Virus record (IMG/VR): IMGVR_UViG_3300021400_000154
Location: 1 to 64,000 of that record
Source: a virus
Taxonomy: Duplodnaviria; Caudoviricetes
Length of the DNA stretch: 64,000 nucleotides
Strand: one strand, 5' to 3'
Positions 4,790 to 56,500 of this stretch are shown here, piece by piece (the stretch's first letter is position 1; each line of letters opens with the position of its first letter). A model generated the notes under the pieces. That model was not told where the DNA came from, ran no database searches, and saw only the letters and a list, made by a program, of their open reading frames with translations. Made by a program: the position numbers and the translations under genes.

Positions 4790-7627
4790 TTACTCGGCGC
4801 GACGTTTCAGTAACTTGTTTGCTTGTGTGATTTCCCGGCGCTTCTGGTTGTAGGCCTCGAAGTACTCCTTGTTGCGCTGCTCCGCGCACTCCTGACACCT
4901 GACCTGGCGCGAGTTGGTCCTCGGCGCCAGCTTGCCACAGTCCATGCAGCGGATGAAGCCGCGAGGAAGGCCTGTGCAGTCATGAGGCGAGGACCAGAGC
5001 GGAATGGACATGCCACACTCAGGACAGATCCTGCAGGCCACCAGGTTCTCCTCCAGCGTCTTGATGGCGATGTCGCCGAAGACGCGCCAGAACATCTGCT
5101 TATGGCTGGACTTGGCCACATTGCGCTCGGAGAACAGGGCATAGACCACCGCCGGGTAAACCTTCTCCAGGCTCCCATACTTCCCGATCAGGGTGCGCTT
5201 GATCTGGTCTGCGACAAAGTCGTAGCCAGCTCCGGCAACACGAACCGCAGAGTCGGACTGCTCGGACGTGTCGATAATGTTCGAGAAGTTGGTGTTGTCC
5301 ATGTCGAAGAACAGCTTGACCGCGTCCTCCATCTTGTCCTCCACCTCACCGGAGAGCATCATGCGGTAGTTAAACGGGGCCACACCAGCATAGTTCATGT
5401 TGATGTTCCCGATCCCGCTGAAGTAGTTGGCGAGGCGGTTCATGATGGAGTCATTGGGCTTCTTGCAGCGACGTTTCTTCTTGTTCTTCGTGTCCTGGTT
5501 GTGGCGACCGTTCCTGCTGTACTGGAAGAAGTACGGCATACGCCCGTTCTTTCCACCCACAGCGGCATTGATGCGCTTTGCTACCTCCGGGTACTTGTCG
5601 TACCCGTTGATGACAGGTAGCTTGGCTCCATCGATCACCTGATTGTTGTAGTAGCACAGCAGCTTGCCGGAATGGTAGTCAGGCTCGTCGGAGTTCCACA
5701 GCTTGCACAGGTTGTTGGACACCTGGCCGATGCCGGAAGAGTCGTGCGCACGAACCAGTCCGATGAAGATGTTCTCGCGGCTGATCGTCTCAGGCGGAAC
5801 CTCGTTCGCGTCATAGAACAGCGGCACGATGTCGTGCTCCCGGACATTGCGTTCTGCGACCGCTACAAAGACAGCGTTCACCACCACATTCAGCTGATCG
5901 CCGTCGCAGTCGAACTGCAAGATCCGACTGATCAGGTCATGAATGCTGGTATAGATACCGTTGGTGATAAACCAGCTGTAGACCTCGGAGGAGTGGCTGA
6001 TGTTGCGGACGGCATGCTCCATGAACAGGTGCGGAGAGCGAAGGCAATCGCACTTGTCATAGTTGCGGTAGACCTTGCAGGCAACCCAGCCATTCTCGAG
6101 CAGGCCTTTCGGATTCTTCTCGCCCAGAAACAGGTACTCGCAGAAGGCGTACAGGTCAGGAATTACGAAGAGCCGCTTGTTCTCGCAGATCAGGCGACCG
6201 GACTGTGCATCCTGGGTCCAGCGGCGCTTGATGGCCTTTAAGGTATCCTTGGAGAAGCCATCCCGCAGCAGCGGATCGTAGAGACACAGCGCCCGCTTGT
6301 AGGGCTGGTCCGAGAACTCGTCTGCCCGGAGCGTCCGAAGCATGGACGCCTTGTCGGTGGCGATGTTCTTGATCTTGTCCCAGGTGCGCTGGGCGAACTG
6401 CGCCATCTCTTCGTTGGTAAAGTCGGTCAGGGACTCAATGAACTGGTAGTTGACCGTTGTGTCCGGGACGAAGGCCTCCTCATAGTTGGTAAAAGAGATG
6501 CCCCAGCCGCACATCTTGGCGATGGTCTTGTACTCCTCCCAGGAAGCGTAGAACTTCCAGAGCTTGAACTGGGAAGCAGTCAGGATCATGGTGATATGCT
6601 CCTTAACCAGGTCATGCTTCTGACCCCAAGCATCCACCACCTCAGGCTTCACACCGTGAACCCTGCAGAACCGAAGGAAATCAAACGGGGACACGAGCCC
6701 CTTGATCCAGGCAGACCGGATCATCCGGTTGTCCTTGAACTCGGAAGGCAGGACCATGCCACAGCCGTCCGTGTGCTTGATCTCCACGGTCGCAACCTTG
6801 CGCTCCACCGTGTAGTCAGGGTTGATGTAGTCCAGCAGGTCGGTCACCAGCCCGGAGAAGTCCTTGACGACAACGATCTTGTCGAAAGAGAAGTCGGAAG
6901 GATCAGTAGCGCTGAAGTCCAGGGCGGTATAGGCCAGGTACTTGGACACGTTCAGTCCGCCCTTGGCGTTGATGGTGTCCCAGTCCAGTCCGCACTGGAT
7001 GTGTACGCGTAGCTGCTCCCATGCCGCATCCGAGAAGCAGCAGACCTTGTCGGTCCGAAGCTGGCCTGCGGATGCGGTTACCATGTCGTAGTGCCGCAGA
7101 TCAATGCTCCCGTCCTCCAGTTCAATGGGGATGTAGAATCCGTCCAGGACCACCTGATGGAGGACCTCCACGGACTTCCACTTCAGGATGACCTTGTCCA
7201 GGAACACCTGATCTTTCTGGATCCCCAGGAATCTGGATGCGTCAGAGCAGAACTCTGCAATCTTTCTGGATGCGCGAAGAGTGTTCCACGTGATACCAAG
7301 CTGCTGGATCGGCTCGCCGTTACAATCCTTCGGCAGCAGTCTGCTGTCTGTCACTCCGGCGACACGTACTGTCCTCGGCACTCCACGATGCTTCAGGATC
7401 AGTTCATCCAGCTGCACCTGAACGGATTTCTTCTCAGCCAGCAGTTCCGCTTTCCGTTCGGTGTTCTTCTTGGTGTTGTTCTTCTTCGCTTCGCTGTCCA
7501 ACCTGTCCATCTCAGCAATATACGCCATGATCTTCTCGTAGAGCGCATATTCATCGTCTGTGAACAGGTCGGTGGTTGTCAGCGTGATGAGCCGGTACTG
7601 CTGGCTCAAATAGCTCTTTTTAGACAT
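4790..7627 (-). CDS. single-subunit two-barrel RNA polymerase, YonO-like (RNAP-1)
   Basis: HTDGCG, IRSAWIKG, LRSPH, catalytic QFDCDGD (5897-5911), IDGAK; C-terminal CxxC Zn ribbons. Confidence 0.88.
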   Translation of the reverse strand: MSKKSYLSQQYRLITLTTTDLFTDDEYALYEKIMAYIAEMDRLDSEAKKNNTKKNTERKAELLAEKKSVQVQLDELILKHRGVPRTVRVAGVTDSRLLPKDCNGEPIQQLGITWNTLRASRKIAEFCSDASRFLGIQKDQVFLDKVILKWKSVEVLHQVVLDGFYIPIELEDGSIDLRHYDMVTASAGQLRTDKVCCFSDAAWEQLRVHIQCGLDWDTINAKGGLNVSKYLAYTALDFSATDPSDFSFDKIVVVKDFSGLVTDLLDYINPDYTVERKVATVEIKHTDGCGMVLPSEFKDNRMIRSAWIKGLVSPFDFLRFCRVHGVKPEVVDAWGQKHDLVKEHITMILTASQFKLWKFYASWEEYKTIAKMCGWGISFTNYEEAFVPDTTVNYQFIESLTDFTNEEMAQFAQRTWDKIKNIATDKASMLRTLRADEFSDQPYKRALCLYDPLLRDGFSKDTLKAIKRRWTQDAQSGRLICENKRLFVIPDLYAFCEYLFLGEKNPKGLLENGWVACKVYRNYDKCDCLRSPHLFMEHAVRNISHSSEVYSWFITNGIYTSIHDLISRILQFDCDGDQLNVVVNAVFVAVAERNVREHDIVPLFYDANEVPPETISRENIFIGLVRAHDSSGIGQVSNNLCKLWNSDEPDYHSGKLLCYYNNQVIDGAKLPVINGYDKYPEVAKRINAAVGGKNGRMPYFFQYSRNGRHNQDTKNKKKRRCKKPNDSIMNRLANYFSGIGNINMNYAGVAPFNYRMMLSGEVEDKMEDAVKLFFDMDNTNFSNIIDTSEQSDSAVRVAGAGYDFVADQIKRTLIGKYGSLEKVYPAVVYALFSERNVAKSSHKQMFWRVFGDIAIKTLEENLVACRICPECGMSIPLWSSPHDCTGLPRGFIRCMDCGKLAPRTNSRQVRCQECAEQRNKEYFEAYNQKRREITQANKLLKRRAE

Positions 7628-7811
7628 TTGCTTCTCTCCTTTTCTTCTCGGTAGCCGACGTGGTTCAGTTACCGGGAGGTCCGCGTAACAGGTTTTTCAC
7701 TCAATCTCCTCCTTTAGCGAACACTTGTTCGTGTTGCAGCTGAAACATACAGCATGTGTCTACCCTTTGACAAGGAAATTTTTCGCAACTTTCGCAATGA
7801 GTTTTTCTTCT

Positions 7812-7838
7812 CATTACGTTCATTTTCGAGGTTGCGGA
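7812..7838 (-). promoter_or_regulatory. 27-bp repeated motif copy 2 (candidate phage promoter)
   Basis: TCCGCAACCTCGAAAATGAACGTAATG upstream of RNAP-1. Confidence 0.7.
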
Positions 7839-7841
7839 TTT

Positions 7842-8045
7842 TCACTTGATCCGGACAAGGTAGTTCTCGCCGCAGTCGTAGACTGTTCGTTCAAGCTCCT
7901 GCGCGTCGGAGAGAAACACGAAGAGCGAACTGTTTTCCTCAGCTGCCTCAAAGATCAGGAGATCGATGGTGAAGAACCGCATCAGGAACTTCAATCGTTC
8001 CTGGTGCTTTACGTTGTCGTCCAGGTCGCCGAAGTACTCGCTCAA
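7842..8045 (-). CDS. hypothetical protein
   Basis: TTG start after GGAGGTGG. Confidence 0.55.
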   Translation of the reverse strand: MSEYFGDLDDNVKHQERLKFLMRFFTIDLLIFEAAEENSSLFVFLSDAQELERTVYDCGENYLVRIK

Positions 8046-8099
8046 TGAACCACCTCCGAAAAAATAAGGGGCTGCTGCACAAGGCAACAACCCCTAAGA

Positions 8100-9357: not shown

Positions 9358-9371
9358 CTTTTGATCTCTCC

Positions 9372-10961
9372 TTACTCATCTGCTCCTGGCATGTTTCTTT
9401 CGGTCAGGTATTGTACCAATTCGGGGTATCGATTGACGTTGATGATGTCTTCCCAGGTCACCTCATGGATCTCTTCGGACGTTTTGCTCTTCGCCAGCGA
9501 TACCACATTGGACACCATCTCCAGTGACGCCATCAGCGTGTTGTACTTTAAGGTGCCACGGAAGATTCTGAACTCCACCGTATCCCGATTACTCAGGTTA
9601 ACGGCGCAGTAATGATCCGTGCAGGCATCCTTTGACTTGCGGATGGCGTTTGTCTTGGAGTCCGCTGCGGTAATGCTGGCGTTCGGCGCATAAGCATAGT
9701 TTTCCAGCGATCTCCTTTTCCTGCGGGAGAAACGCACGAACAGATCCCAGAAGCGGTCGAACAGAATAATGATCTTGGCAGCCGTATCGTCCTGTTCTTC
9801 CACGCTGTCTCCCAGCGCTGTCCTGTTGACATGGACATGCAGTCCGCAGGTGCCGAGCTTGTGGGAAGTGAAATGATAGAACAACGCCTCATTAATGATC
9901 TGCTTCCACGGAAAGCTCTGCTGATGGTACTCCAGCGTACAGGGATGCGTGACGATCTCGAATCCGCCATTGACCAGGGATCCGTCATACTTCATGTAGA
10001 ACAGATCAGTCTTGTTGTGCTCGATGGCCAGCATATCCTTGGCACACGTTTCTCTGTCGTCTCCGCCGTCCACCTCCAGTTCTACGCCCATGAACAGGCT
10101 TCGTGGATCTGCGTTCAGCTCATGCCCATGGAAGATAGGGACAGGCTTGTAGCTGTATTGATGGATGGGATTGGAATTGACACTGTACCCAAAGCTTTCC
10201 GCGCAGGCAGGGCAGAGAACCCGATCATCATCATCGGTTACGGTGTCTTCATAGCGGACAGTGCGACCGCACTCGTCGCACTCCGTAAAGTGCTGACAGT
10301 AGCACGGATAGCAGACCCGTTCGCCGCATGCGGTCATCATCTTGCTGTTAAGGAATACTTCTCCGCAGCACTCGCAGATGCCGAAGTAGTTCGTGTTGCA
10401 CAGTGTTTCGGAACTGATCCAGCCAAGCTGCGTTCTGGACGTGCCAAACAGCTTGATCGTTGTCATATCCTCCGGGATCGGCGCACCGGTGAGGAATTCT
10501 TCCGGCTGGCTGTCCGGGCGGTGGAGAAGTGTCATCCAGTCCCAGCGGATGGATGAAAAGGTGCCGATTCTATCCTCTGGCCCGTCTACCCGGATCGCTC
10601 TGACAAGACATTGCTCCACGCCCCAGGAGCCGATGTAAGCTTTCTCCACCCTGGCTTTGTAGGATTCTCCAGAAGGCAGATCCACCTGAACCAGATCTCC
10701 TGTTTGGAAATGCTCGTCTGCCCGCTGATAGATCGGCTGATCCCGCAGGTTCATACCTTCCGGCAAATCAACGACGAGCTCCAGATCATCGATGGTGTCC
10801 AAGGTAATATGGTTTCCGTGCTCAGAGCCACGGTCAAACTCGTTGACAACCAGGTATTTGTCGAAATATCGAGAGTCAAGCTTCTCGATCACCTGGAATA
10901 TGCAGCCGTAGTAGTACGTCTCCGTACGACGCACACGAACATAGGAACCTGGCTGAATCAT
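9372..10961 (-). CDS. amidoligase (COOH-NH2 ligase family) with Zn ribbons
   Basis: GVELEVD, KYDGSL, FEIVTHP, CGLHVHV, VEFRIF; several CxxC pairs. Confidence 0.85.
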   Translation of the reverse strand: MIQPGSYVRVRRTETYYYGCIFQVIEKLDSRYFDKYLVVNEFDRGSEHGNHITLDTIDDLELVVDLPEGMNLRDQPIYQRADEHFQTGDLVQVDLPSGESYKARVEKAYIGSWGVEQCLVRAIRVDGPEDRIGTFSSIRWDWMTLLHRPDSQPEEFLTGAPIPEDMTTIKLFGTSRTQLGWISSETLCNTNYFGICECCGEVFLNSKMMTACGERVCYPCYCQHFTECDECGRTVRYEDTVTDDDDRVLCPACAESFGYSVNSNPIHQYSYKPVPIFHGHELNADPRSLFMGVELEVDGGDDRETCAKDMLAIEHNKTDLFYMKYDGSLVNGGFEIVTHPCTLEYHQQSFPWKQIINEALFYHFTSHKLGTCGLHVHVNRTALGDSVEEQDDTAAKIIILFDRFWDLFVRFSRRKRRSLENYAYAPNASITAADSKTNAIRKSKDACTDHYCAVNLSNRDTVEFRIFRGTLKYNTLMASLEMVSNVVSLAKSKTSEEIHEVTWEDIINVNRYPELVQYLTERNMPGADE

Positions 10962-10990
10962 GGCTCCTCCCTCCTGATAAGTTAATAGAA

Positions 10991-11019
10991 AATACGGGGC
11001 GGATTGCCCGCCCCGTATT
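10991..11019. terminator. intergenic hairpin, probable terminator
   Basis: AATACGGGGCGG...CCGCCCCGTATT inverted repeat, T-rich on minus-strand 3' side. Confidence 0.6.
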
Positions 11020-12814
11020 AAGAGTTGAGTTGCAGTTCATCCGCGAAGGCAATGTGGTAATCGTCGTCCGCTGCGTTATTACGGACCACGAACACGCCGG
11101 GCTGGATGATCTCCGTCACCTCGGCAGGGAACGGGTTATCCCGGTCGATGTTGCACAGGACGGTGTCGCCCGTTTCAATGTCATTGGCCTCCTTGACCTC
11201 GCCCAGAGGCTCATCGGAGAAGTTGTCAAGGCCCTTCTTCGCCAGATAGGCGTTGAGCTCCGGGTACTCCTGGATCTTCACCAGATCCTCCCACGTGGCG
11301 TCCTGCACACCCAGCAGATCCCGCTCCATGGCGAGACGCACGATGTTGGACACCAGCTGGAGGTTCGCCTTGATGGTCTCCGGGTTCAGCGTGCCACGGA
11401 AAAGCCGGAACTCCACAGTGTTGGTATTGGTGATGTTCAGGGCGAAATACCGGCGCTCGTGTCCACCGTCACAAGCCTTCTTGGCCTTGCGCACAGCACT
11501 GTTGGCGTTGTCCCGGCGACTGATGCCTGCGTTGGGCTTCTTCGCCCACTCGTTCAGCTTCTCAACCTCCCGGCGGGAAAAGACCACCAGCTTCTTCCAG
11601 AACTTGTCCATCAGAAGCATCATCTTCGCCACCGTCAGATCCTGCTGGCTGCTGTCACTGCCCAGCGCACTCCGGCTCACATGCACATGCATGCCGCAGG
11701 TCGTGGTGTCATGGGAGCGGTAGCCATTAGACTTGGCGATGTTGGAAATCTCATCCCAAGGGAACTGAGTAAGGTGATACTCCAGCGTGCAGGGATGGGT
11801 CACGATCTCGATGCCGGAACCGTTCTCGTTCAGGGAGCCATCCTCCTTGCAGTAGAACAGTTCCTCATCATCGCTCTCGTCGTACAGCTCAGCCAGGCAA
11901 TCACTACGGCTGCGGCCACCGTCAATCTCCAGTTCCACACCCATGAAGAGCTTGTCTTCCGGCACGTTGTAGTACTGCCAGATGGCATTGTTCACGTCCC
12001 TGAACACAGGGCTGGGCTTGTAGGAATAGTAGTGGAGGCTGTCCGACCTCGCATTCGCCCGACGATCCCGCGCACAGCTCTCGCAGTACCAGCCGTCGTC
12101 AACCTCCTCCAGATAGTCGCTACGAACGATATCGCCGCAGCCATCGCAACGAGCGTAGGAATCGTCGTAGCAGGAGGAGCACACACAGGTGTACTCGTCC
12201 TCCTCGAAGCTCAGCACAGCACGGCCGCAGCCTTCGCAGATGCGCCAGCAATCATTGCTGGTGTCATTCAACACCAGGCCGATAGCACTCTCGTTGCGCC
12301 GCTCACCATTGTAGAGCTCGCTATAATCGTCATAGCTGTAGATCGGCGCGTAGGAGAAGAAGTCGAAGCCCACAGGAAGCTCGCCATCCTCGTCAGGATA
12401 GTGTTCCGGGTTCTCTTCGATCACTTCCAGCTGGTCCATACGAAGTACGGTATCCCTCGCGCAATAGTGAGTTTTGAAAACGACAGTCACCATGCTCCTG
12501 GCATCATAGGTCCAGTAAGAACCACCGCCGAAATGAGTGATCCGGCCTTCAAACGTGGTGCCATCGATTTGGAACCGCACACGCTGACCCATCTTCAGCA
12601 CATCGCCAGCCTTTTTGTAACAGATCTGGTTTGCCAGGTCGATCGTGCTGGCTTCCTCATCGGAGATTTCCACGCAATTGTTTTTCGAAACGTAGAAGGT
12701 ATTGCCGTCCACACCCCTCAGCTTGCGGGTACTGCTCAATGCAATTACCTCGTCAACTGCTTCGAACACGCAGTTGTGAAGGGGACTGATGATGTTTTCA
12801 ACACGAACAAACAT
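11018..12814 (-). CDS. amidoligase paralog 2
   Basis: GVELEID, KEDGSL, IEIVTHP, CGMHVHV, VEFRLF; aligns with 9372..10961. Confidence 0.85.
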   Translation of the reverse strand: MFVRVENIISPLHNCVFEAVDEVIALSSTRKLRGVDGNTFYVSKNNCVEISDEEASTIDLANQICYKKAGDVLKMGQRVRFQIDGTTFEGRITHFGGGSYWTYDARSMVTVVFKTHYCARDTVLRMDQLEVIEENPEHYPDEDGELPVGFDFFSYAPIYSYDDYSELYNGERRNESAIGLVLNDTSNDCWRICEGCGRAVLSFEEDEYTCVCSSCYDDSYARCDGCGDIVRSDYLEEVDDGWYCESCARDRRANARSDSLHYYSYKPSPVFRDVNNAIWQYYNVPEDKLFMGVELEIDGGRSRSDCLAELYDESDDEELFYCKEDGSLNENGSGIEIVTHPCTLEYHLTQFPWDEISNIAKSNGYRSHDTTTCGMHVHVSRSALGSDSSQQDLTVAKMMLLMDKFWKKLVVFSRREVEKLNEWAKKPNAGISRRDNANSAVRKAKKACDGGHERRYFALNITNTNTVEFRLFRGTLNPETIKANLQLVSNIVRLAMERDLLGVQDATWEDLVKIQEYPELNAYLAKKGLDNFSDEPLGEVKEANDIETGDTVLCNIDRDNPFPAEVTEIIQPGVFVVRNNAADDDYHIAFADELQLNS

Positions 12815-19059: not shown

Positions 19060-19440
19060 ATCAACCTTAAGGAACTTGTAGAACTTGAATGCTGTATTTA
19101 AAATACTTAGTATTATTAGAATACCGAGTACTTAAAGACAGTACTTAAGATTCTACAAGGAACTTAAGTTTGATACTTAAGATACACTCAGAACTTAAGA
19201 TTAGTACTTAAGATTCTCCGAGTAACTTAAGTAGTTTATCTAAATACGGTTTCTTTTATATCCCTTATTTTGAAATCCTTATTTAAGGGAACCGTATTAT
19301 GATAAGTACTACCGAGTTATCTAAGAGAATCTAATCATAGATTCTGAGTATTGTAGAGATATTGAGTACTTTGTTTTTATTTTAGTTACTATTGACTTAA
19401 GTTGTATTTTATATTATTTTATTTAATATAATACAACGTA
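19060..19440. repeat. AT-rich non-coding region with repeated ACTTAAG (candidate replication origin)
   Basis: seven ACTTAAG copies counted by hand (19143-19402), no ORF, far more AT-rich than flanks. Confidence 0.6.
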
Positions 19441-19815: not shown

Positions 19816-20207
19816 GCTGCACCTCCAGATGTGTTTCTTTCCATTACGTTTATTTTCGAGGTTGCGGATTTTCGGAGTGCCTCCGCAAAGCGTACAGCAT
19901 CACGGACAGCAGCCCGGAACTTGCGCACGTTATCCTCAAGAACTTCTTGCTTGTTGCCGTAATTTACGGTGTCATTGTCAATCGGCAGTCCAGCCTGACG
20001 AAGCATGTTGTATGCGACAACCACTGTTCCGCCGAGCGGATGGTAATGACTGTCCAGGAGACAGATCTGCTTGTCACGAAAGCATATGTCCTGGACGGTA
20101 TGGGTGAGCACGGTCTCAAGCTTTTCGTCGTACTCTACCCATACGGAAAATGTCAGGTACTCACTGGTCTGAAAATCGACCAGCGAATGCATGAATGTCC
20201 TGATCAT
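19812..20207 (-). CDS. hypothetical protein
   Basis: ATGA overlaps at both ends. Confidence 0.6.
   Translation of the reverse strand: MIRTFMHSLVDFQTSEYLTFSVWVEYDEKLETVLTHTVQDICFRDKQICLLDSHYHPLGGTVVVAYNMLRQAGLPIDNDTVNYGNKQEVLEDNVRKFRAAVRDAVRFAEALRKSATSKINVMERNTSGGAA
19842..19868 (-). promoter_or_regulatory. 27-bp repeated motif copy 3 (candidate phage promoter)
   Basis: TCCGCAACCTCGAAAATAAACGTAATG within the 3' end of 19812..20207. Confidence 0.65.
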
Positions 20208-26460: not shown

Positions 26461-29400
26461 TTACTCAGCAGCCTCTTCTTCTTTCTCGAAACGCATCGCG
26501 GCCTTTTCTGCCAAGCCGCCGAAGATCATCCAGTAAGCTCTCCAGAGCTGATCACGCAGGAACTGGACTTTGGGATCGGCGTATTCGATATCGCACTTCG
26601 TGAACATGTAACATGTAATCACGTCATACGCATTGATCAGCGTCAGCCCAAACGATTCTGCGAACTCACTGATCTCGGACAGTGCCGCGACTCTCCAGTC
26701 GTCTTCAAAGGATGTGTCTTCCTGGTCCTTCCGGGTCTCATCTCTGGTCCAAAGCTGGCGATCCGTTTCGATCCTGCGGGCCAGGGCATTGAACAAACCT
26801 TCATCCGGACGGCACCAGGCACCATCAAGCATGATGGGGTTATTGCCCTTTCTGATCAGTCCCCACATACCACGCCGTCCCTCTTCGGGGTCGAACATCA
26901 GCATGTGGTAATCAAACTTACCCTCAGGCAGGTCGTAAATCTCGGTGGATCTGTCCAGCTTGTCGCTGTACAGCATGAACAACCGGTTAAGAGTAGACAC
27001 CATCAAGGTGCGATCTACTCCGTCCATGGAAGCGAGCTTTTCCAGCTCGTTTCTGGTCGCATGGCGAGCAACCGCATCTTTGTACAGTTTCGCCAAAGGC
27101 TGCACCATATTAGTAGCAGCTTGGCTTTCCCGAGGCTCGTTGAAGTCGGCTCCACCATGTTTGCTGGCATCCACCAGCACATTCGCGGCAAATACCTTGA
27201 AGTTGACGCCGCGCTCGCTGATTTCAACCAGTTCATAGTGGTATTCTCCAGTAACAGGGTCTTTAACTCTGTTGACCCTGTTCAGAAGGCCGTTCTCGTT
27301 GAACACGGTCAGTCCGAGCTGGTTCTTATGGGTCAGACCTCCAGCATAGACGAGCTCGTCTTCGCGGGAAACGATCTGTTTGTCAGTCTCTGGCGCTTCC
27401 CAAATGATGAGCCTGTTCCACCTGGCCAGCGTCTCTTTCGTCGCCTGGATCATACCTTTCTCGAAGGAGAACTTGACACCATCGCCGTCGAAATCCATGG
27501 CAAAGGCGCGGGAGGTGTCATCGTAGCAGTTGAAGTAGACGCAGTACGCCTGCGTCTTGAAGTATTTCTTGAACGCCGCTTTCGGAGCGACGTTCCGGAG
27601 GACCCTGTCGCTGTTGGGATGCACAACAGGGGACCTGGAGCAGGCGAATTCGCCGTACTGGAATCCAGGGATCCATGCTTCGCCGACTTCCAGACTGCCG
27701 GTCCGCTCCAGGCCGAACCATGCCTGGAAGACGTATACCGGATCGGGGAGCGCCTTCGCGTAGTAAGAGTTACGAAGAATCTTACCAGAGAAGGCGAGGT
27801 CGATGTCTTTCGTGAGTGATGTCACGAATCGTTCATTGATGGCCCGGACATTGAGGAACGTCGGAAGAATGCGGGCAATATGCCCGAGCTCACGCCCGAG
27901 CATTTTGCTGGCACCATCAACGGTGTGGGCACCGTTGATTCGCTTGATGGTCGGTTCAGCCATCAGCGCCAAAGACTCGTCTGATGCTTCCGTGAGTGTC
28001 TGGACAACCTGGTAAGAGGTGTCCTTCTTTTCCGGGGCATGGGCGCGTACGCATACACCAAGGTCGAACTCAGAGCGAACTGCGTCGCACCAAGCCTCAA
28101 ACGTGGTATACGCTCTGGTTGCGTTGCCGATGTTCGTCTTCAGGACGGTCTCGTCCATAAAGACGGAAATCTGGTCGATGGGACGACCATCGGGCATCGT
28201 ATGGATACCGTTTTCGTGAAGGAACCGATGAGCGGCGAAGTTCCGGTCGCAGCAGCTCTTAATCGCTGCGCCATTAGCCCGAATTGTGACCACCGAGTGA
28301 TCGGCCATAAAGGCTTCGATTCTTTCGGCCGCTTCTTCGGGATCAACGCCCTGCTGAATCAGCCGGTTCACGAACACAGGAACCATTTGTTCCGGAATTT
28401 CGATGCAGGAGTATCCGTCAGAGCGGATCTCGCTCTCTCGGTTGTTGTCCATCTGCTCCTCATGCCCGTCGAGGAACTCCTTCGTATGGTTGCCGACGAT
28501 CTCGGACCACACGGAAGGCATGATTGCACAATCCTCCGGAATGAAGGGGATCCCAAAGGACTTCCTGGGAACGGCCTGAAGGCCAACAAGGTAAGCAACT
28601 TTCTTCGCGACGGTCGTCAGCCATCCAGTGTTTGTATCTTTCAGAATCCATGTCCGCATTTCTGCGTAAATGGACTCTTTGACCCAGAGAGTTTTGCATT
28701 CCTTGGCGTTGTTGGTGCCATGGCCAAGGAACACGTACTTTGTTCCATTGATAACAAGACCGTTCATAACGGTCTGGCGCCACAGGTGTGCGGCGTCTTC
28801 CGCCATCTCCAGGCTCTCTATGTCTGTGGCTTTGGCATCCGGAATGATTGATGTGACGTGAACGATGGCGTTGTCCCCGCCGATGGCGATGGCTTTTGCC
28901 TCAACTGGAGACACGCCCTTGTTGATGCTATCAAAGTCGAACCCGTTTTTCTTCGGGTTCAAGGTCGCACGAATGAACGTGCGTGTACCATAAGCCCGAA
29001 TAGTGGGTTCAGCCTTGCAGATCGGCTCCAAGGCGTCGAGGATTTTGTAAGCTGTCTTTTCGCCAATACCCGGGATTTCCATCAAACGTTCAGTGTTCCG
29101 GCCAACAATGACCTTCTTCAGGTCGCTGACTCGGATCGCCAGAACGGCGGCGATCACAGCTTTCTTGAGGCCCTTGCAAGCCTCGAGCCTCGTCCTGGCA
29201 TTGTCTTTCCATTGCTCGGCGTTTTCGCGACGAACAAGGGTGTTCGTCCAGCCATGGTTCGCCAAGACGATACTTGGCGTACCTGCCGTTTTGATTTGTC
29301 TCGGCAGGTTGGGCTGCTTAGTGGCAATCTGCCGATAGGCCGAAAATCCTTCTTCAGCAGACTGGAAGACTTTGGATTTAATGGCCCCGTTCAGCTCATA

Positions 29401-29685
29401 CTGAACCATAACCGGAGTCTTTCTTGTGGCACTGCCACCGCTACCAATAGCGAGCAACATCGGGAGTGCCAGGATCCGCCCGGCACGGCGGGCCAGCATC
29501 CTGACCCTGTTGGTCTTGTTGATCTTCTTGACAGTGGGCTTGCCATAATAGGCATTGGCCCACTCGGCGATCTTGGTCTCGGTGGTCTGGGTGGCCACCT
29601 CGGTGGTGACGGTGGTGGTGTCCTTGGTCCAGCCAGCGCAGAACGCCAGCACAAGGGCCAGGATCAGGGCAAACAGCTTCTTCAT
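26461..29685 (-). CDS. second two-barrel RNA polymerase-like protein (RNAP-2) with hydrophobic N-terminus and HhH motif
   Basis: RSDGYS, IRANGAAIKS, SRSPVVHP, AMDFDGD (27481-27495), VDASKHG; HhH LMEIPGIGEKTA. Confidence 0.78.
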   Translation of the reverse strand: MKKLFALILALVLAFCAGWTKDTTTVTTEVATQTTETKIAEWANAYYGKPTVKKINKTNRVRMLARRAGRILALPMLLAIGSGGSATRKTPVMVQYELNGAIKSKVFQSAEEGFSAYRQIATKQPNLPRQIKTAGTPSIVLANHGWTNTLVRRENAEQWKDNARTRLEACKGLKKAVIAAVLAIRVSDLKKVIVGRNTERLMEIPGIGEKTAYKILDALEPICKAEPTIRAYGTRTFIRATLNPKKNGFDFDSINKGVSPVEAKAIAIGGDNAIVHVTSIIPDAKATDIESLEMAEDAAHLWRQTVMNGLVINGTKYVFLGHGTNNAKECKTLWVKESIYAEMRTWILKDTNTGWLTTVAKKVAYLVGLQAVPRKSFGIPFIPEDCAIMPSVWSEIVGNHTKEFLDGHEEQMDNNRESEIRSDGYSCIEIPEQMVPVFVNRLIQQGVDPEEAAERIEAFMADHSVVTIRANGAAIKSCCDRNFAAHRFLHENGIHTMPDGRPIDQISVFMDETVLKTNIGNATRAYTTFEAWCDAVRSEFDLGVCVRAHAPEKKDTSYQVVQTLTEASDESLALMAEPTIKRINGAHTVDGASKMLGRELGHIARILPTFLNVRAINERFVTSLTKDIDLAFSGKILRNSYYAKALPDPVYVFQAWFGLERTGSLEVGEAWIPGFQYGEFACSRSPVVHPNSDRVLRNVAPKAAFKKYFKTQAYCVYFNCYDDTSRAFAMDFDGDGVKFSFEKGMIQATKETLARWNRLIIWEAPETDKQIVSREDELVYAGGLTHKNQLGLTVFNENGLLNRVNRVKDPVTGEYHYELVEISERGVNFKVFAANVLVDASKHGGADFNEPRESQAATNMVQPLAKLYKDAVARHATRNELEKLASMDGVDRTLMVSTLNRLFMLYSDKLDRSTEIYDLPEGKFDYHMLMFDPEEGRRGMWGLIRKGNNPIMLDGAWCRPDEGLFNALARRIETDRQLWTRDETRKDQEDTSFEDDWRVAALSEISEFAESFGLTLINAYDVITCYMFTKCDIEYADPKVQFLRDQLWRAYWMIFGGLAEKAAMRFEKEEEAAE

Positions 29686-29817: not shown

Positions 29818-29961
29818 CTATTCGCCCTCAGGCTCCTCGTCGGCGGCTTCTTCAGCCTCCCTAACGGCCTCAAGCGCTTCCGCGTCAGAAGCGTACTCGC
29901 GCATGGTGCCGTCAGGCAGCTTCATCAGCCAACCGTAGCCGGTGAGAGTGGGGTTTGCCAT
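29818..29961 (-). CDS. small acidic protein
   Basis: AAAGGAGG RBS; ends in TAG. Confidence 0.6.
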   Translation of the reverse strand: MANPTLTGYGWLMKLPDGTMREYASDAEALEAVREAEEAADEEPEGE

Positions 29962-31829: not shown

Positions 31830-32001
31830 GGTGGTTCCTCCTTCTCCTGCATTTTGCAGGTCTCGATCCACTTGGGGCGTGCCGTTGTCGCCGTACCGGT
31901 TCCCACGAGTATCCGGCATAAGCGTGTGAGTTTACGCTCAAAAGCTGAGCAATCTCGCGTAAACTCATCATTAGTTCTTCTCCAAGTTCTCTCCCCAAAA
32001 A

Positions 32002-32028
32002 TCCGCAACCTCGAAAATGAACGTATTG
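32002..32028 (+). promoter_or_regulatory. 27-bp repeated motif copy 4 (candidate promoter of virion operon)
   Basis: TCCGCAACCTCGAAAATGAACGTATTG on plus strand at the strand switch. Confidence 0.7.
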
Positions 32029-32093
32029 GAAAGAAACGCAAAAAATGCGTCTCTTTTTCGCATTATATTTTCATAACAATCAGAGGTGATCTC

Positions 32094-46228: not shown

Positions 46229-47143
46229 ATGAGCACTTATGTTCCAGCCTGGAAAGGCTACATCGCAGACGTTCCGCAACTCTGGTTCAAGAGATGCGAT
46301 GGCAACGTCTATCACTTTGACGAGCTGACCCAGGCCAGCGTTCAGCCGGACACGAACACGATCGACATCAACGCCGGTCAGAGTCTTTATCCGGTGGCCT
46401 ATCTTCCCGGCCAGTCCACTATGACGATTGATGTCACCAGCGGACAGTTTGATGCTGATATGTTTGCGATGGCGAACAACGCGTAGTTTGAGGATGGGTC
46501 AATCGAGATCCCCGGCTCTGCTTCGGAAGCCATCGAAATGTATACGCAAGAGATTGCGCAAGGCATGACTGTTATGCACATCAAGCTGCACAACTTCCTG
46601 GCCTACAAGACGGCAAGCGTTCAATTTTCTCTTGATGGGGAGGACGTCGGTGACCCTATTGTTTGTTCTGACACACAGGACGCGGACAGCAAAACGAGCT
46701 TCAAAAATGCTGTCGCTCAGTTTTTCCCGCATGATCCAGGCCAGCAGATGGGAGTTATTATGCCTGAAACCGGTGATGATGTTGACATACAGATTAACTT
46801 CAACTCTGCTCCTTCTCTTCCGGAGATGCCAGCTGACGGTGGCACAATGGAGTAGGAAGGTCGTGTTTCCAGCGGCAAGGTCGCGAAGTTTGACAACAAG
46901 TCCGCTGCCGTCGGCGAGGCTGTTCTGAAGTGGCCTGTATATGCCAGCGGAGACGACTGTTCCGACTCTGCGATCAAGGGCTACCTGATCATGCACATGT
47001 ATCGTGCGCGGATTACGAGAATGCCTGGGTTTGACGATTCATACAAGAGCGCCTCCACGTTCCAGTTCCAGCTCTCTGCCATGGATGCGAAGCGCGATGA
47101 CGGGAAGATTTACGAGCTGGCGTATAAGGAAAACGATCTGTAA
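46229..47143 (+). CDS. tail tube-like protein, paralog 1 (2 in-frame TAG)
   Basis: aligns at both ends with the 47225 gene only when TAG 46484 and 46853 are read through. Confidence 0.72.
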
Positions 47144-47224
47144 CAATATGATTGACTACACGAAGTCTGTAGGGGGACAGCGTGTTTTCAATATATACAA
47201 AAATAAACCAAAGGAGTGTTGCAT

Positions 47225-47992
47225 ATGCCTAATACATATGTGCCCGCCTACAAGGGCTACATTGCGGACGTGCCGCAGGTCTGGTTCAAGCGTTGCGATG
47301 GCGAAGTGTTCCACTATGACGAGATCACTCAGGCTTCCGTGAACCCACAGACTAACTTCACTGAAATCAACGCCGGTTGGTAGCTGTATCCCGTGGCTTA
47401 TCTGCCCGGTCAGTCCACCATGGAGATCTCCATGACATCTGGTCAGTTCAACGCCGATCTGTTCGCGATGGCGAACAAGACCAAGTTTAAGACGATTGGT
47501 CAGGATCCTCAGGACACCGAGAAGTATAGCACCTTCAAGACCGAGTCTCTGACTCCTGACGCCACCACTCACAAGGTGACCCTGGCCGAGACTCCTGTTG
47601 AAGGCACCGTTGCCATTCGTGGCCTGGAGCTGACCACTGACTTCACCGTGTCCGGCAAGGAAGTCACCTTCACCGATGATAAGATTGCCGGTCCCGTCGA
47701 GATCTCTTATGAGTATGAGGTGAATGGCGCCAACGTGATCAAGATTGACAACAAGTCTGCTGCTACCGGCGAGGCCGTCATGAAGTGGCCTGTGTACGGT
47801 GCTGGAGACGACTGCACCGACAGCGCTGTGAAGGGCTATGTGATTCTGCGGATGTACCGTTGCCGGGTCACCCAGATGCCTGGGTTCGACACCAGCTATA
47901 AGAGCGCGGCCACCAATGCCGTGACCTTCTCCGCTATGGACGCGAAGCGCGACGACGAGAAGATCTACGAGATCGCCTACATCGACGCCTAA
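47225..47992 (+). CDS. major tail tube protein, paralog 2 (1 in-frame TAG)
   Basis: AAGGAG RBS; TAG 47381-47383; highly biased codons; precedes chaperone. Confidence 0.75.
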
Positions 47993-48959: not shown

Positions 48960-48971
48960 GAGGTGATTCAT

Positions 48972-49594: not shown

Positions 49595-49627
49595 TTTTTT
49601 GTCGTAAGGCCAATACTGATAACGGCT

Positions 49628-50455: not shown

Positions 50456-50477
50456 GATAACACCCCCCTTATGTGGT

Positions 50478-50506
50478 TATATAACATAAGTTTGCCTTAC
50501 TGTCAA
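50478..50506 (-). promoter_or_regulatory. sigma70/sigmaA-type promoter of the LRR gene
   Basis: TTGACA-17 bp-TATATA with TG extension on minus strand. Confidence 0.65.
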
Positions 50507-50529
50507 CACTTCGAAAAGGAGGTAATAAT

Positions 50530-53500
50530 ATGCCGAATGATCAAGTAGTACTTGATGTCGTTTTTCAGCCTCAAGTAGAAAGCCTGATTCAATAGTTGCA
50601 TCAGGCATCACAAATTGCGTCAGATGACGTTCAAACAATGCTTACCGAATCAATAACTCAAGCTGGATTATTGGCGAAAGAATCTGAAGGCTTTTAGTCT
50701 CAAAGTATGCCTCAGGAATATGTTCAAATGGCACAATCTTTAATGAATGCCATGAATAAACAAGTTCAAGACATCATCGCACAGCTTAATAAGGCATCGC
50801 AAGATGCAACTTCTTCTGGGTTTGAGGATGGTATTATCCAAAGAATAAAGACTACAATAGGTTCGCTTACTGCGAACATTATAGATCAAACTTTTTCAGT
50901 TGGCGCTATGAAAAATATTGTTGGTCAGATAGCACCTGATATGGCACAGTCTTTTGCCCAAAACTACAGAGATTACTATTTGCAAGCAAGTAGACTTATG
51001 GCAAGGCAAGCCAAAAACCCAGCAACAAACGGCGAATGGATGAAGTACCTTGATTTAGATTCTGGCTTTGCCGCTGGTCAAAGAGCTATGATGCAACATT
51101 TTGGGTTGTCAGAAGCTCAAATGAGACTGATGCAAGAATCAGTAGTGCGCAGCCAGCCAAATCAAATACGTATCGATTACGCCAGAAATGCTGTTCGATA
51201 TTCAGGTGGGGCCATGAAGAAAGTTGGCGTGATCCCACAATATATGACATATCAAGAACGGCTACCTGCTTTTTATCAGGGCTTAAGCAACCAACCACAA
51301 ACAACAACGTTGTCCCCTGATGAAAGGCAGGCTTTACAAGCAGAAGTAAGTGATGAGCAATGGAAAACAATCAGAAGTATAGCCGCTAGCAACCCTTCTT
51401 TTGAAAAAGCTCTTATTATGGCTGGATTAGCCCAAAGAACAGTCCATAACAAAGCGGCAGGTTAGTTAGTTATGCCACAAAAGCCAGTAAGTACTGAATT
51501 GGTTGCAAGAGCGATTGGCCATTTACATAGAGATATAATGATTCCTTAGCTCGAGGGAGCGCCATCTAATTACAGAAAAATCACATAGACATCTGGTGAG
51601 GATCAGATGGCAATGGCAAATGCAGATTAGAAAACAGTGTTAGATATTATCGATGCGTTTCATAAACTTGCTCCATTGGGTATTTCTCCCGTATATGGTG
51701 ATGCTGTTACACGCCCATATAATCCACAGACTGGCGTTTCGCGTGTACGAGGTGCGAAATCTACTGCAGCTCCAGAAAGATATCAGATTATGAGTTTAAC
51801 ATGGGATGATTTCCAAAAAGGAGTTATGCTTGATCCACATGGCCCTGTTCAAAGCGAATATGAAGAAGGCGCAAGGGGCACATCGACAAACAAGATGATT
51901 CTTGAATCGGGTTTCACAAGAATGCTCGGCATGCATGGTAACAACACGTTCGGTAATGGAAGCAAAACAGATAATAGTTCGCCTTCTATAATACAAATTG
52001 ACTTGTAGGATCGATTATTAAAGAAACGTAAAGACGGAGAGTTAGAATGGGAAAATGGACACGTTGTTCAAGATGAAGATACTGCGAAGCTAATCGAGCG
52101 TATATTTACTATTCCGCAAGGCCATTCTCACCCGAGAGTTCAGTTTGGCCAAACTGGTATTCATTATGTTCCTACTAATGTGAAGAATGGCGTGATTACT
52201 CTTGGACGGGAAGATGCTGTTGAAAGTGCAATCAGCGATTCTATAAGACTGACAGGGCATAATGTGCTCGCTAATATGGTTGACCCGAATACTGTGTTCT
52301 AGACATATACTGATTTGAATAAACAAATCGAGGCATACAACAGAGACTTAACTCCGTCTGTGCCTATTGAAAGAATGGGCGGAAAGCTTCCTGATAAAAA
52401 TAGAATCGCATTTGTTGATCTGTCTTCGTTTACAGGGAAAAAAGATAGTAAGACTGGCCGTAATGACTATCACGATGGTTCATCCTTTTTTATGCCTGGC
52501 TTTATTCCAGGTGGCAATGCAACATACAGAATCGCCGGACAAAAGGGCACAGCTCAAACAGTTGATTTCCGTGCAATGATTAGAGATTTATACGGCGATG
52601 TTGATCATTTTTATTTGCCTGCATTGAATGCTCCGAAAGAATACAAAGATGCATTTAACCAGCATGGTATTGAAAAAGTTAGAGAAATGATGCAACAACG
52701 AGGAGAGTTGTAGAAATTCGAAGAATATTTCCTTGATGCGTTACAGTTTGATGCGCTTATATAGGACTCAGTCATTAAATCGCCTGCGTACAAAGGCTTG
52801 ACGAACGCACAGGCGCAAGATCTTTTTTATAAAACAAAAGAAACCCCTATGGGTATGGGCATTGTACAAACAGCAAGCCAGTTTTTGACAAAAGGGAAAC
52901 TTTCTCTTGGCAGACAGTTATCTCAGCATTTAGACTTAACACCAGAGCAGATAGCAGAAAACAGAGAGTTGTGGGAGAACTATATAAATATGCTCAGATA
53001 TAGGCCAGAAGAGACTGCAAAGAGGTTGTTTTCAAATCCTAACAATTCTTTGGATTCTAAGATAATGGCTAACCCTGGATTAATGTGGGATGACCCAGAA
53101 GCAAGGTAGATTGTGCTAAACGAAATATCTAAAGCTATGATTTCTATGGCGAACGGAGAATTGTTTTAGGATGGATTATCGCCTTCTGCTCTGGCCGCAG
53201 CGAACCCAGCAAAGATATTAATGGATGCAGCCAGCAGAAATGGCCTTAAGATACAGAATCCATTACTTGCGCGAAGGCTTACACTTGGAACTGGTAAACT
53301 TGCTGCAGGATTCTTGGATGATGACGAGATAGCAGTTGGAAGATGGCCAATGACACCTGGAGAACAATATAGTGCCCAACTATAGAAAGATTACTTGGAG
53401 GCTGGAAGAAAGTACGGGCTCGCAGATGACGTTTTTTATACTGATGCCGGATTTATCGGAGCAATGGGAGGCGGAGATGTCGACGGCGACACGATCCAGG

Positions 53501-56500
53501 CATTAAGAGGAAGACTTCGTGATTATGTAAAAAACACAATAACTGCAAGAGCTGGTAAAACCGGGCAACGTGATGCGTCTTTAATACCAGAACCTTTGCC
53601 AGCAAATCAAAAAATAGGGCCAAGAGTTTTTGCAGATCAAATGTTCAGAGCTGCTCAGCAGCAGATCGAATTAGGAATGGTCTCTAGAGCTCAAGACGCT
53701 TTATCCCAACTTCCTTGGATTGACCCAGAAATAGTTAGACAATATGGGCAAGCGAATGCAGACTTAGCCATGCAATATGACGTAGATTCGACTTTTTTGA
53801 AGACAGGCGTATTGGCGAACTGGACTCAGGCCTCAAAAAATGCAAGGTATTTAGGCAGACCTTTCAGTCATGTATATAAAGACCTTGTTGGAGCTATCCA
53901 AGAAGGAGATTATTCGAAAATAAGAAAAATGTAGGAGTTGAACTTTCCAAGTCGGTATCATGCTTTGACGGCTTAGATGATGGAAAGTTTATACCAGAAT
54001 CCAATAAGTAACACAGCTATTGACAAAATGATTGCTGCTCAAGAAGATTTAGAAGGAATACCTCAGCTTGAACAAGGAGAGCTATATCAACGAAGTCAAG
54101 CCGCGTTCTTAAGAGAAAACATACGAGTGATGTAGCAATTACTCTCTTCAAGAGCTGGTTTTGTTTCAACCGAAGATTTTGAAAACCTTGGAGCAAAAGC
54201 AAAAAAGTGGCAAGCTGACGTCCAAACAGAGCTTGCTCGACCTGGCATAGACGAAAAAAGAAAGAAAGTTCTTTTGGAGAATTTGGGACTTGCACAACAG
54301 CAACAATACCGTTTAGATCGCTTAAGACAGTTCGGTGTTATTGAAGGAGCTACAGACGGTTATGTTAGCTTGTTTAAAAACACTAGAGGCACTTCTGGAT
54401 AGTCTGTTTTTAGTGTTGCGCAACAGCAAGCCACGGATGCAGAAGCAGCTGAGGTTGCGGCAAGAGTTGGCGCCAATCCAACAATGATAGCAGCGATGAG
54501 AACTGCTGCGGAGAATGCGCAAATCGCTGACGCTAAACGAAAAGCCGAGAGCGCGAGATATAGTTTCTCTCAGTTGGCTCTGTTGGATAAAAGCCCTGAA
54601 GAATGGTTTAATCGGTACATAGCTAAATCAAGCGAAACAGAAATGACGCCAGCAATACATATTGGCAACGTTGTTGATAAACTTACGACAGAATGGGGTT
54701 ACAGGAGACTAGCTGAACAAAAAGGGCAAGGAAAAATGCTTACTCCTGATGAGTTTGAAAAAATGTTTGTTGCCTTGTTTACAGGAAACTTTGATCCATC
54801 TTCTTTTATAAGCGGTTTTGACGAGCGCGAACGCAATAAGTTTACAGATGCGGCGAAAAGGCTTGGTTTTCAAAATGGAATGGAACATCCATCTGACAGA
54901 TATAGAAATGCTTTAGCATATGTTAGAGCGATGCCTTTCATGTTGCCAGATGAGGAAATATTGGAATGGGATGATAATGGAGAGAAAAAACCATCTGTTC
55001 AAGTACGCGTTCGCCCTGATTTCGGAACAACTCCTTCGGGAAGCAGGGTAAATAGTATTGGTTTTGTAGACTTGATCACGAGAAATAAACATACAGGTCA
55101 GATTACAGAATGGGACACAAAAGCAAATAGCGACCAAGAAGGACGTACTGGAGGCATCAATCAAGTATATTCTTATAGTACAGATCCTGCCTTCCAGCCT
55201 TCTCATATTGGAATCTTAGCGTACAATGATCCTGAACACACGGTAACACAGCTTCCTTTTTCTAAAGAAAGACAAGATGAAGTCCGAGCTATGACTAGGG
55301 ATATTCTTGCTCAACGTTTTTTAATCGCTGAGCATGGAGACAGTTGGGATTTTATTCGGAATCAGTTCTATCCAGGAATGAACGAAGCAGCAGAACGCAC
55401 GCAAACTGAAGCCGAACATCAACAAAGTAGATCTTTTATGGAACAAGGAACTGGAATGGCAATGGCCAAAGCAATGACGTTGCAAAATGATATCACAGAA
55501 TATGAACAACGCATGCAACAAATAACACAACAACTACAAAATGGATTAAGGCGTAGAAGCGGGGATCAAACAGATAATCCTTGGGAGTCTTTTGATGCGC
55601 AGTTGAATGCTTCATTTGATGCAAGAAGACGACAGTTGGTAAAAAGGGGAGCCAACAAAGAAGATTTGGTAGGTTTAGACGAAGAGAGAAGAAAAGCTGC
55701 GGAAATGTTCGACAAAGCTTTAATGGAAGCGGCCGGTGGAGAAAAATCCGATATCGTTCAAACAATAAACGCGCTAAATGATTAGTTCGCTAAGCGACGG
55801 TCTGATTCCGGTTTGACAACTTACATTCAGGAATTTGAGGGCATTGAAAAGGCAGTTAAATAGGCTACTATGGCGTTTGACGTGTTTGAACAAAAGATGG
55901 CAAAAAAGAAGAACTTGTCGCAGAAAGATCAAGAAGCTCTCGACCGTGGAAGACAGCAAAGAGAAGAGCTTACTGGTTTGGCAGACATACAAAGGCGCGC
56001 TATATAGGAAGAGGCAAAACGGAAAGCATTGTCGCAAATAGAAGATTTTGCAATAGATCAAGGTACCATGGAAATGACTCCAGAAATAAGAATGCAGCGT
56101 ATCAAACAAAAAAGGGCAGAAGAACTGATGCGTACTCAGTTAGCCATAGGAGAGTTAAAAGATAAAGGCCTTTTATCGGAAAAAGATTTCGAATCAATGT
56201 CTAGCAGTATTACTGATATGCTTGGCGATCAATAGCTGGGTGCTTTTGCTGCGCGCGCTGAACGAATCCGACTTGGATTAGAAACAAAAACGCCTGAACA
56301 AATGAGTCAGGAGCGTTTGAGAGATATTCGAGCAGCGATTGCAGCATAGGTTGAATCTGGAGGAGACAGTCCTGAAGTTGCCGCAGCAAGAGAAAGAAAA
56401 CGTGCAGCTGATAAAGCTTTGGAACAAGCACAACAACAAGCTGCGGAAGCGCAACAGGCAGCGGGTGGTAAAACAGTTACAGCTGAAGATGTAGCGGCGG

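Follow-up and report, generated by a model that had tools for sequence, protein, structure and literature searches.

We analyzed a 64,000-nt stretch of viral DNA (the window), the first 64 kb of the 110,614-bp IMG/VR record IMGVR_UViG_3300021400_000154, and found that it encodes three single-chain, two-barrel RNA polymerases (RNAPs) of the YonO/QDE-1 clade. Two are free enzymes, here called RNAP-1 and RNAP-2, and the third forms part of a giant tape measure protein (TMP). The record carries direct terminal repeats and is judged complete, and by sequence it is the genome of an SPbeta-like siphovirus, whose host is probably an anaerobe. We consider it fairly likely (probability roughly 0.6) that the three polymerases divide the transcription programme of the phage, with the tail-delivered enzyme acting first and the free enzymes, one of them reading a repeated 36-nt element, acting after it. 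Having one polymerase built into its tail ruler, the phage probably brings a transcription enzyme of its own into the cell, where the two free enzymes are used next. An initial annotation of the window had suggested a relay of this kind.

Three polymerase genes and their motifs

The enzymes and their catalytic triads are located as follows.

4790-7627, minus strand: RNAP-1, 945 residues, an open reading frame (ORF) under translation table 11, no in-frame TAG in 945 codons
5897-5911, minus strand: DCDGD triad of RNAP-1, residues 573-577
26461-29685, minus strand: RNAP-2, 1074 residues, an ORF under table 11, no in-frame TAG in 1074 codons
27481-27495, minus strand: DFDGD triad of RNAP-2, residues 731-735
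50530-66969, plus strand (window part 50530-64000): giant TMP gene, 5,479 codons, 57 in-frame TAG, TGA stop
51790-54006, plus strand: two-barrel RNAP domain of the TMP, residues 421-1159
53476-53490, plus strand: DVDGD triad of the TMP-fused RNAP, residues 983-987

The pattern D.DGD occurs only four times across the six frames of the 110.6-kb genome and, since three of these occurrences are the triads of RNAP-1, RNAP-2 and the TMP, the three motifs are more than chance. The fourth, at 97315-97329, belongs to a frame of 178 codons on the strand opposite a longer ORF; we took it as a chance match. The triads sit in the genes to which the initial annotation had assigned them and are invariant in homologue alignments (D573, D575, G576 and D577 in the 16-sequence RNAP-1 family alignment, A5; D731, D733, G734 and D735 in the RNAP-2 alignment, A1; and the TMP triad in alignment A4). 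Its claim of a full series of flanking motifs was likewise borne out by profile-profile alignment, which revealed the same order in all three families: DG, R..KG, S..K, (N/S/G)(Y/R)Q, R(S/W)P, DxDGD, G(I/L/M)..S and D(G/A/S)..K(T/H)G. The [RK]xP motif, filtered for at 20-100 residues before the triad as used by Chaban et al. (Suppl. Data 4), is RSP at residues 530-532 of RNAP-1, RSP at 684-686 of RNAP-2 and RWP at 938-940 of the TMP, and is invariant or nearly so. Conserved basic positions, putatively of the first barrel, are also mutually aligned among the families (R304/K309/G310/K355 in RNAP-1, R469/K516 in RNAP-2 and R667/K672/G673/K750 in the TMP).

RNAP-1 is by sequence a clear YonO orthologue. 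It matches phrog_8308, the YonO family profile, over positions 80-846 of 847 (E 1e-157) and reaches 23.9 bits against Pfam RdRP (PF05183; cut-off 23.8), and its homologues fall into at least 508 clusters. As the initial annotation had held, it is YonO-like: tblastn aligned 86% of the query to SPbeta yonO at 33% identity (E 4e-107), with 32-34% identity in the wider comparison with yonO of SPbeta and its relatives over 80-86% of the length (E about 1e-107 to 2e-124). Its C-terminal tail is Cys-rich and zinc-ribbon-like. YonO is an experimentally proven, processive DNA-dependent RNAP that transcribes the SPbeta late operon and in which the Asp triad is essential (PMC5467207), in agreement with the background given in that annotation. 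The two-barrel architecture of RNAP-1 is assigned through this direct homology.

RNAP-2 is more divergent and is classed from sequence as a YonO-family paralogue. It matches phrog_8308 over profile positions 331-596 (E 8e-23) and aligns to RNAP-1 with 23% identity across 244 residues that include the triad (BLASTP, E 5e-7), and alignment of its family to the YonO-like family with hhalign gave 99.6% probability (E 7e-24) over 647 columns. The TMP domain is collinear with both free families through all of the motifs, although weakly (profile-profile E 3e-5 and 1e-4). The statement of the initial annotation that the three share little similarity outside the motifs therefore stands for the giant gene, but not for RNAP-1 and RNAP-2, which are clear paralogues.

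Predicted folds of RNAP-2 and the TMP domain

Sequence searches of the PDB with the profiles of A1 and A3 returned no polymerase, only RuvA for a helix-hairpin-helix (HhH) module of RNAP-2, so that fold comparison was needed. The AlphaFold2 model of RNAP-2, built from 16 sequences, has a mean predicted local distance difference test (pLDDT) score of 81.7, with low values in its hydrophobic N-terminal part. Foldseek matched this model to the RNA-dependent polymerases RDR2 and QDE-1 (E 7e-17 to 1e-14), to gp66 of crAss-like phage phi14:2 (7e-5) and to gp64 and gp62 of P23-45-group phages (about 1e-4). In VIA-align, residues 227-1073 superimposed on maize RDR2 with Z 21.6 (622 residues; root-mean-square deviation, rmsd, 6.1) and on QDE-1 with Z 20.4 (overall, Z 20-21.6 across 614-652 residues for these two enzymes), and the model scored Z 8.2 against crAss gp66.

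The model of the TMP domain was likewise confident (pLDDT 87.3; predicted template modelling score 0.81). Its Foldseek matches were QDE-1 (E 5e-11), RDR2 (about 1e-8), gp64 and gp62 (about 7e-4) and the tape-measure-fused polymerase gp96 of Thermus phage P23-45 (2e-3). VIA-align gave Z 16-17.6 across 503-526 residues for RDR2 and QDE-1 (RDR2, Z 17.6, 503 residues, rmsd 3.7; QDE-1, 16.7), Z 14.0 for P74 gp62, Z 11.1 over 365 residues for gp96 and Z of about 8.8 for the catalytic beta'/Rpb1 barrel of the largest subunits of cellular RNAPs. Among the predicted viral structures of BFVD, the top matches were phage proteins annotated 'RdRP' (E 3e-16). The structural alignment of the TMP domain stops near QDE-1 residue 1180, whereas that of RNAP-2 continues to 1343; on this model the TMP enzyme may lack the C-terminal clamp element, as gp96 does (PMC10770324). 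The two-barrel fold, the lack of which the initial annotation had set as the result that would count against it, was found in all three enzymes, by confident models for RNAP-2 and the TMP and by YonO homology for RNAP-1.

RNAP-2 carries two additional N-terminal features.

29425-29685, minus strand: pair of hydrophobic segments at the RNAP-2 N-terminus, residues 1-22 and 71-87 (hydropathy scan)
29017-29217, minus strand: (HhH)2 DNA-binding module of RNAP-2, RuvA domain II-like, residues 157-223

The hydrophobic segments are found in 11 of 16 family members and form a possible membrane hairpin, so RNAP-2 may be a membrane-anchored RNA polymerase. The (HhH)2 module falls just under the cut-off for Pfam HHH and HHH_5, and its structure superimposes on RuvA (VIA Z 10.6, rmsd 1.8, 67 residues). 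The proteins P0017 and P0018 have nearly the same N-terminus as RNAP-2, yet a polymerase body that is only 22-23% identical, which suggests that the N-terminal module moves between polymerase bodies. Just upstream of RNAP-2 lies a 47-codon ORF (29820-29961, minus strand) that is coding by score, has a strong ribosome-binding site and ends in TAG; TAG may still be a stop in early genes.

A polymerase fused to the tape measure

The TMP gene occupies the tape-measure slot, after the phrog_2729 structural genes and before Dit and a large minor tail protein. Under table 11 it is not an ORF, and it is open only with TAG as a sense codon. Three further features lie downstream of its RNAP domain.

54559-55137, plus strand: weak PD-(D/E)XK nuclease-like stretch, 3' of the RNAP domain, residues about 1344-1536
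59956-60567, plus strand: tape-measure core, residues 3143-3346 (Pfam PhageMin_Tail, E 9e-26)
60775-61017, plus strand: hydrophobic, transmembrane-like segments, residues about 3416-3496 (hydropathy scan)

The core also matches five TMP PHROGs (best E 9e-33) and is common to the ten giant homologues aligned in A4. The nuclease-like reading of residues 1344-1536 is tentative (Pfam PDDEXK_1, E 0.0026; 18.2 bits, under the cut-off of 22).

Residues 421-1320 of the TMP have 52 relatives among 1.84 billion representative proteins, 18 of which are giant proteins of 3,899-5,923 residues that carry the domain at the same N-terminal position with 31-44% identity. All 18 contain GGGDxDGD at residues 967-1059. 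These giant homologues come from standard-code gene calls and are single proteins, so that polymerase and ruler are indeed a single polypeptide. The domain was absent from 185,579 scanned species genomes, and a tblastn search with TMP residues 1-1500 found no match in 50,697 phage records. The window domain did not match the YonO family profiles phrog_8308 and PF05183; phrog_8308 matches the 5,898-residue giant ORF of one relative (G007, E 2.4e-8), and Pfam RdRP touches 3 of 17 TMP-domain relatives weakly (E >= 0.002).

Probable TAG recoding separates the tape-measure enzyme from the free pair

All of the in-frame TAG codons in the three polymerase genes fall in the TMP gene. The genome encodes a candidate decoder outside the window, an 87-nt long-arm suppressor tRNA(CUA) (genome 91017-91103) that lies one base from a tRNA-Ser(UGA) and shares its long-arm type. 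Across the 11 TAGs within TMP residues 421-1320, Ser occupies 35% of cells of non-recoded homologues, against a background of 6.8%, and Gln occupies 2.8%. Given this excess of Ser at homologous sites and the Ser-type tRNA(CUA), Ser rather than Gln is the most likely reading of TAG. With 57 TAGs to read, the virion enzyme could not be made in a cell without the phage tRNA, which fits late production and use at the next infection.

A repeated 36-nt promoter-like element

The genome contains six copies of a 36-nt promoter-like element, TCCGCAACCTCGAAAAT(G/A)AACGTAATGGAAAGAA, which holds by far the most repeated 11-mers of the genome. Every copy is oriented as the genes that follow it and lies 2-100 nt ahead of a ribosome-binding site.

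2669-2704, minus strand: after a hairpin, 44 nt before the start of the single-stranded DNA-binding protein (SSB) gene
7805-7840, minus strand: about 178 nt upstream of the RNAP-1 start
19835-19870, minus strand: 9 nt before the ribosome-binding site of a gene for a small hydrophobic protein
32000-32035, plus strand: the only plus-strand copy, 58 nt ahead of the gene that opens the rightward virion operon (ATG at 32094)
genome 94303-94338, minus strand: about 230 nt upstream of a tRNA array that includes the suppressor
genome 99354-99389, minus strand: before a gene at 99.3 kb
31830-32093, no strand assigned (not itself a copy): divergent control region, from which a unit of small genes followed by RNAP-2 runs leftward and the late operon runs rightward

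Codon-usage scoring placed a strand switch at 31.83-32.09 kb. The leftward unit, which includes RNAP-2, begins at this divergent control region near 32.0 kb. None of the six copies precedes RNAP-2. In a relative with a 91%-identical RNAP-1, the element occurs at both syntenic sites covered by the short contig (before RNAP-1 and before SSB); its 3' 24 bases are kept, and the 5' ten-base block changes from CCGCAACCT to TTCAACAGC in the same way in both copies. Such a concerted change would be expected if a recognition site and its reader co-evolve.

Conservation in related phages

Two YonO-family genes were found in all ten related IMG/VR records tested, in line with the co-occurrence that the initial annotation had listed as a check. 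Five of these records were identified via RNAP-2 relatives and five via the TMP domain. Both free genes are present in each of the latter five, and three of the former five contain weak TMP-domain matches as well, two of them inside frames of 4,416 and 5,176 codons. The three-enzyme set is thus conserved in related uncultured phages. We found no cultured phage or paper describing three such polymerases together, and the full-text literature searched, which is part of the whole, contained no description of a YonO-type triple or of a tape-measure fusion in SPbeta-like phages. The survey by Chaban et al. of viruses with at least two two-barrel RNAPs lists, in the portions consulted, four non-jumbo phage records with adjacent protein pairs (PMC10770324); a keyword search of the survey and those same portions gave no sheet for three enzymes and no case of YonO plus a tape measure.

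Some relatives depart from the fused, intact arrangement. On a 110-kb SPbeta-like ENA contig (L034:8001-14522), a 937-residue protein with ADFDGD (P0057) is encoded directly upstream of a separate, 1,204-residue tape measure, representing an unfused form. The YonO-like gene appears to be split in G007 (C1:133914-137355), where two adjacent matches cover profile positions 2-566 and 551-844, and shortened in G006 (C1:63410-65062), where the frame has 673 codons.

A proposed transcription programme and its alternatives

On the preferred reading, the TMP enzyme would be produced late, its 57 TAGs needing the phage Ser-type suppressor tRNA, and would be assembled into the tail, from which the next infection would eject it along with the tape measure. 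By analogy with P23-45 gp96, the ejected enzyme would transcribe the first genes, and the TAG-free RNAP-1 and RNAP-2 could then be translated by the unmodified host. One free enzyme would read the 36-nt element that heads RNAP-1, the SSB and replication genes, the tRNA array with the suppressor and the 47-kb virion operon. The preferred order runs from the virion enzyme to RNAP-2 and then to RNAP-1 for the late genes, RNAP-1 being placed last by analogy, on account of the late role of YonO in SPbeta. The observations that fit such a relay are the dependence of the TMP enzyme, and not of the free enzymes, on a suppressor tRNA, the position of RNAP-2 leftward of the control region, and the presence of the element before RNAP-1 and the late operon and not before RNAP-2. 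We regard a cascade as plausible and as the most economical reading, its order and its independence from host RNAP being inferred.

Several points weigh against this programme. The phage is uncultured, and the programme is read from sequence and models. The kinship of the TMP domain is distant: profile probabilities against the free families are only 58-73% (58% for the YonO-like family with hhalign), BLASTP detected no significant similarity of the TMP N-terminus to RNAP-1 or RNAP-2, and the domain was modelled with Gln at its 11 TAG positions though Ser is likelier. The 36-nt element is absent from the more distant relatives G006-G010, of which G010 is flagged as a provirus, so the promoter reading rests on this genome and its close relatives; in G006, a relaxed search revealed neither the element nor a comparably repeated 11-mer of its own. 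No particular polymerase can be assigned to the element, which also precedes RNAP-1 itself and, if RNAP-1 is its reader, would form a feedback loop instead of a linear relay. The related records were picked through homologues of the same genes and are therefore a biased sample. Finally, in a relative with a 64%-identical RNAP-1 (L041:2750-3000), a perfect TTGACA-17-TATAAT promoter of the sigma-A type precedes the RNAP-1 gene, so that in some of the clade, at least, host RNAP is probably involved.

This last promoter also speaks for the likeliest of the alternatives, which we nevertheless judge unlikely: host RNAP would start infection as in SPbeta, the YonO paralogues would split the middle and late promoters, and the TMP enzyme would have another job at entry, such as pulling in the genome by transcription or passing DNA through a tape-measure pore. 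Cultured relatives show that such a life is feasible: a single YonO gene, and nothing that matches the TMP domain, was found in each of the four tested (SPbeta, Clostridium phage D-1873, Psychrobacillus phage Perkons and Enterocloster phage PMBT24). A TATAAT box is present in the divergent region, and Chaban et al. propose transcription coupled to genome translocation (PMC10770324). Yet the leftward unit is not faced by a good -35/-10 pair, the stretch from 14.0 to 33.5 kb shows no enrichment of sigma-70-like sites (15 versus 12.8 +/- 3.7 in shuffles), and the TMP enzyme of P23-45 transcribes defined pre-early genes.

The structural matches raise another alternative, namely that one of these two enzymes, RNAP-2 or the TMP enzyme, does not transcribe the genome but works as an RNA-dependent or primer-making polymerase like QDE-1 and RDR2, serving replication priming or RNA-based interference with the host. 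Cellular RNA-dependent RNA polymerases are the best PDB matches of both models, a further point against the relay; Pfam RdRP matches 9 of 16 RNAP-2 relatives, and QDE-1 is described as active on both DNA and RNA templates (PMC9508822). We nonetheless think this improbable: YonO, of the same clade, is a processive DNA-dependent RNAP, gp96, gp64 and crAss gp66 are DNA-dependent too, RNAP-2 bears a predicted double-stranded DNA-binding (HhH)2 module, and the genome already encodes a primase-helicase. That one of the three is a catalytically dead relic with a structural role, for example as tail filler, is very improbable, as it has no direct support beyond the TMP domain being the most divergent of the three (with its few, weak Pfam RdRP matches), whereas in all three families the Asp triad, RxP and the R..KG and K attributed to the other barrel vary little or not at all, and the retention of catalytic residues in sequences only 30-50% identical overall argues for selection on catalysis.

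A more elaborate form of the relay is tentative and, taken as a whole, rather doubtful: a three-stage programme free of host RNAP and gated by a genetic-code switch. Here the tail enzyme would transcribe the leftward unit; the membrane-anchored RNAP-2 that results, which its hairpin and (HhH)2 module would keep close to where the DNA enters, would read the 36-nt promoters and might help to draw the genome in; RNAP-1, the replication genes and the Ser-type suppressor tRNA would thereby be switched on; and only then could the TAG-laden virion operon, including the next infection's polymerase, be translated.

Genome context

The minus strand from 0.3 to 31.8 kb includes genes for a primase-helicase, a Sak-type annealing protein, SSB and two amidoligase-like paralogues. 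From 32.09 kb onward, the plus strand encodes an HNH/zinc-finger protein, terminase, portal and two phrog_2729 paralogues, followed by the giant gene, Dit and a 1,802-residue minor tail protein. A DNA polymerase, the anaerobic ribonucleotide reductase NrdD and exonucleases are encoded at the far end of the genome. The giant TAG-recoded gene had led to a first guess of a crAss-like phage, which was dropped in view of the PhageMin_Tail tape-measure core and the SPbeta-like genome.

Two pairs of adjacent paralogues stand out. The phrog_2729 virion structural genes (46229-47143 and 47216-47992) share 71-74% DNA identity, both with in-frame TAG, and are possibly the tail tube. The amidoligase-like genes (9372-10961 and 11018-12814, minus strand; phrog_16683, E 2e-71 and 5e-64) are flanked by RNAP-1 and a repressor-like gene. 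A patch of low G+C content at 19127-19232 contains clustered repeats with the sequence ACTTAAG (two units of 43 nt, 63 nt apart), which may serve as an origin or as an array of operators.

Comparison with known systems

The closest precedent is Thermus phage P23-45, which has a TMP-fused virion RNAP and one free RNAP. Its gp96 transcribes the pre-early genes, including that of the free RNAP gp64, and the remaining transcription is left to host RNAP (Chaban et al. 2024, PMC10770324); structures exist for the P23-45 system (PDB 8H2M/8H2N) and for gp64/gp62 of related Thermus phages (PDB 8F72 and 8F5M). As in P23-45, a two-barrel RNAP here lies in the N-terminal part of a tape measure of about 5,000 residues, and the phage encodes at least one further, free RNAP. 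Unlike gp96, to which it has no sequence match, the TMP domain is structurally nearer QDE-1, RDR2 and YonO-like phage proteins, and its triad is at residue 983 instead of 779. The tape-measure core is of the PhageMin_Tail type, the gene is TAG-recoded, there are two free RNAPs rather than one, with P23-45 handing its late genes to host RNAP, and the host lineage and lifestyle are different. By analogy, then, the TMP enzyme would work like gp96 from outside the gp96 sequence family.

SPbeta shares the YonO orthologue, the type of replication genes and the overall size, and RNAP-2 belongs to the same family at the profile level. YonO reads one long late operon from a single start, and here a single copy of the element heads the virion operon. 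In contrast, SPbeta has one YonO gene and is not recoded, and no polymerase domain was detected either within its tape measure or beside it. The Neurospora enzyme QDE-1 and plant RDR2 are the best structural matches (Z 16-21.6 over 500-650 residues, covering both barrels and the bridge region), but they are eukaryotic RNA-silencing enzymes that act on RNA or single-stranded DNA, with 9-14% sequence identity; what they share with the phage enzymes is fold and clade rather than role.

Coliphage N4 runs a three-polymerase programme with a virion RNAP, RNAP II and host RNAP, in which a giant, injected virion polymerase acts first. The programme proposed here would be staged and opened in the same manner, but with two-barrel enzymes, whereas those of N4 are T7-like right-hand polymerases and its third stage is carried out by host RNAP. 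Virion-carried two-barrel polymerases also occur in crAss-like phi14:2 (gp66) and in the jumbo phages phiKZ and AR9, the latter being independent of host RNAP. However, gp66 is outside the tape measure and is a weaker fold match to the TMP domain (Foldseek E 0.07), and both the virion and the non-virion enzymes of the jumbo phages are multisubunit.

Each part of the system is known singly, and we found the combination of three in no cultured phage or paper. Three related single-chain enzymes in one genome offer a natural system for studying the divergence of promoter choice and architecture, and TAG recoding, by separating the virion enzyme from the free pair, ties a code switch to the proposed transcription relay. 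The six-copy element can be tested with cloned enzymes and needs no cultured host. To our knowledge, the P23-45 group of Thermus phages is the only one for which experiments have established a tape-measure-fused virion RNAP. The same ruler-polymerase design is found here in a second, sequence-unrelated lineage within SPbeta-like phages (at least 18 giant-protein clusters at 50% identity, plus an unfused sister form), so that the link between tail ruler and polymerase extends beyond a single group of phages and may have had more than one origin.

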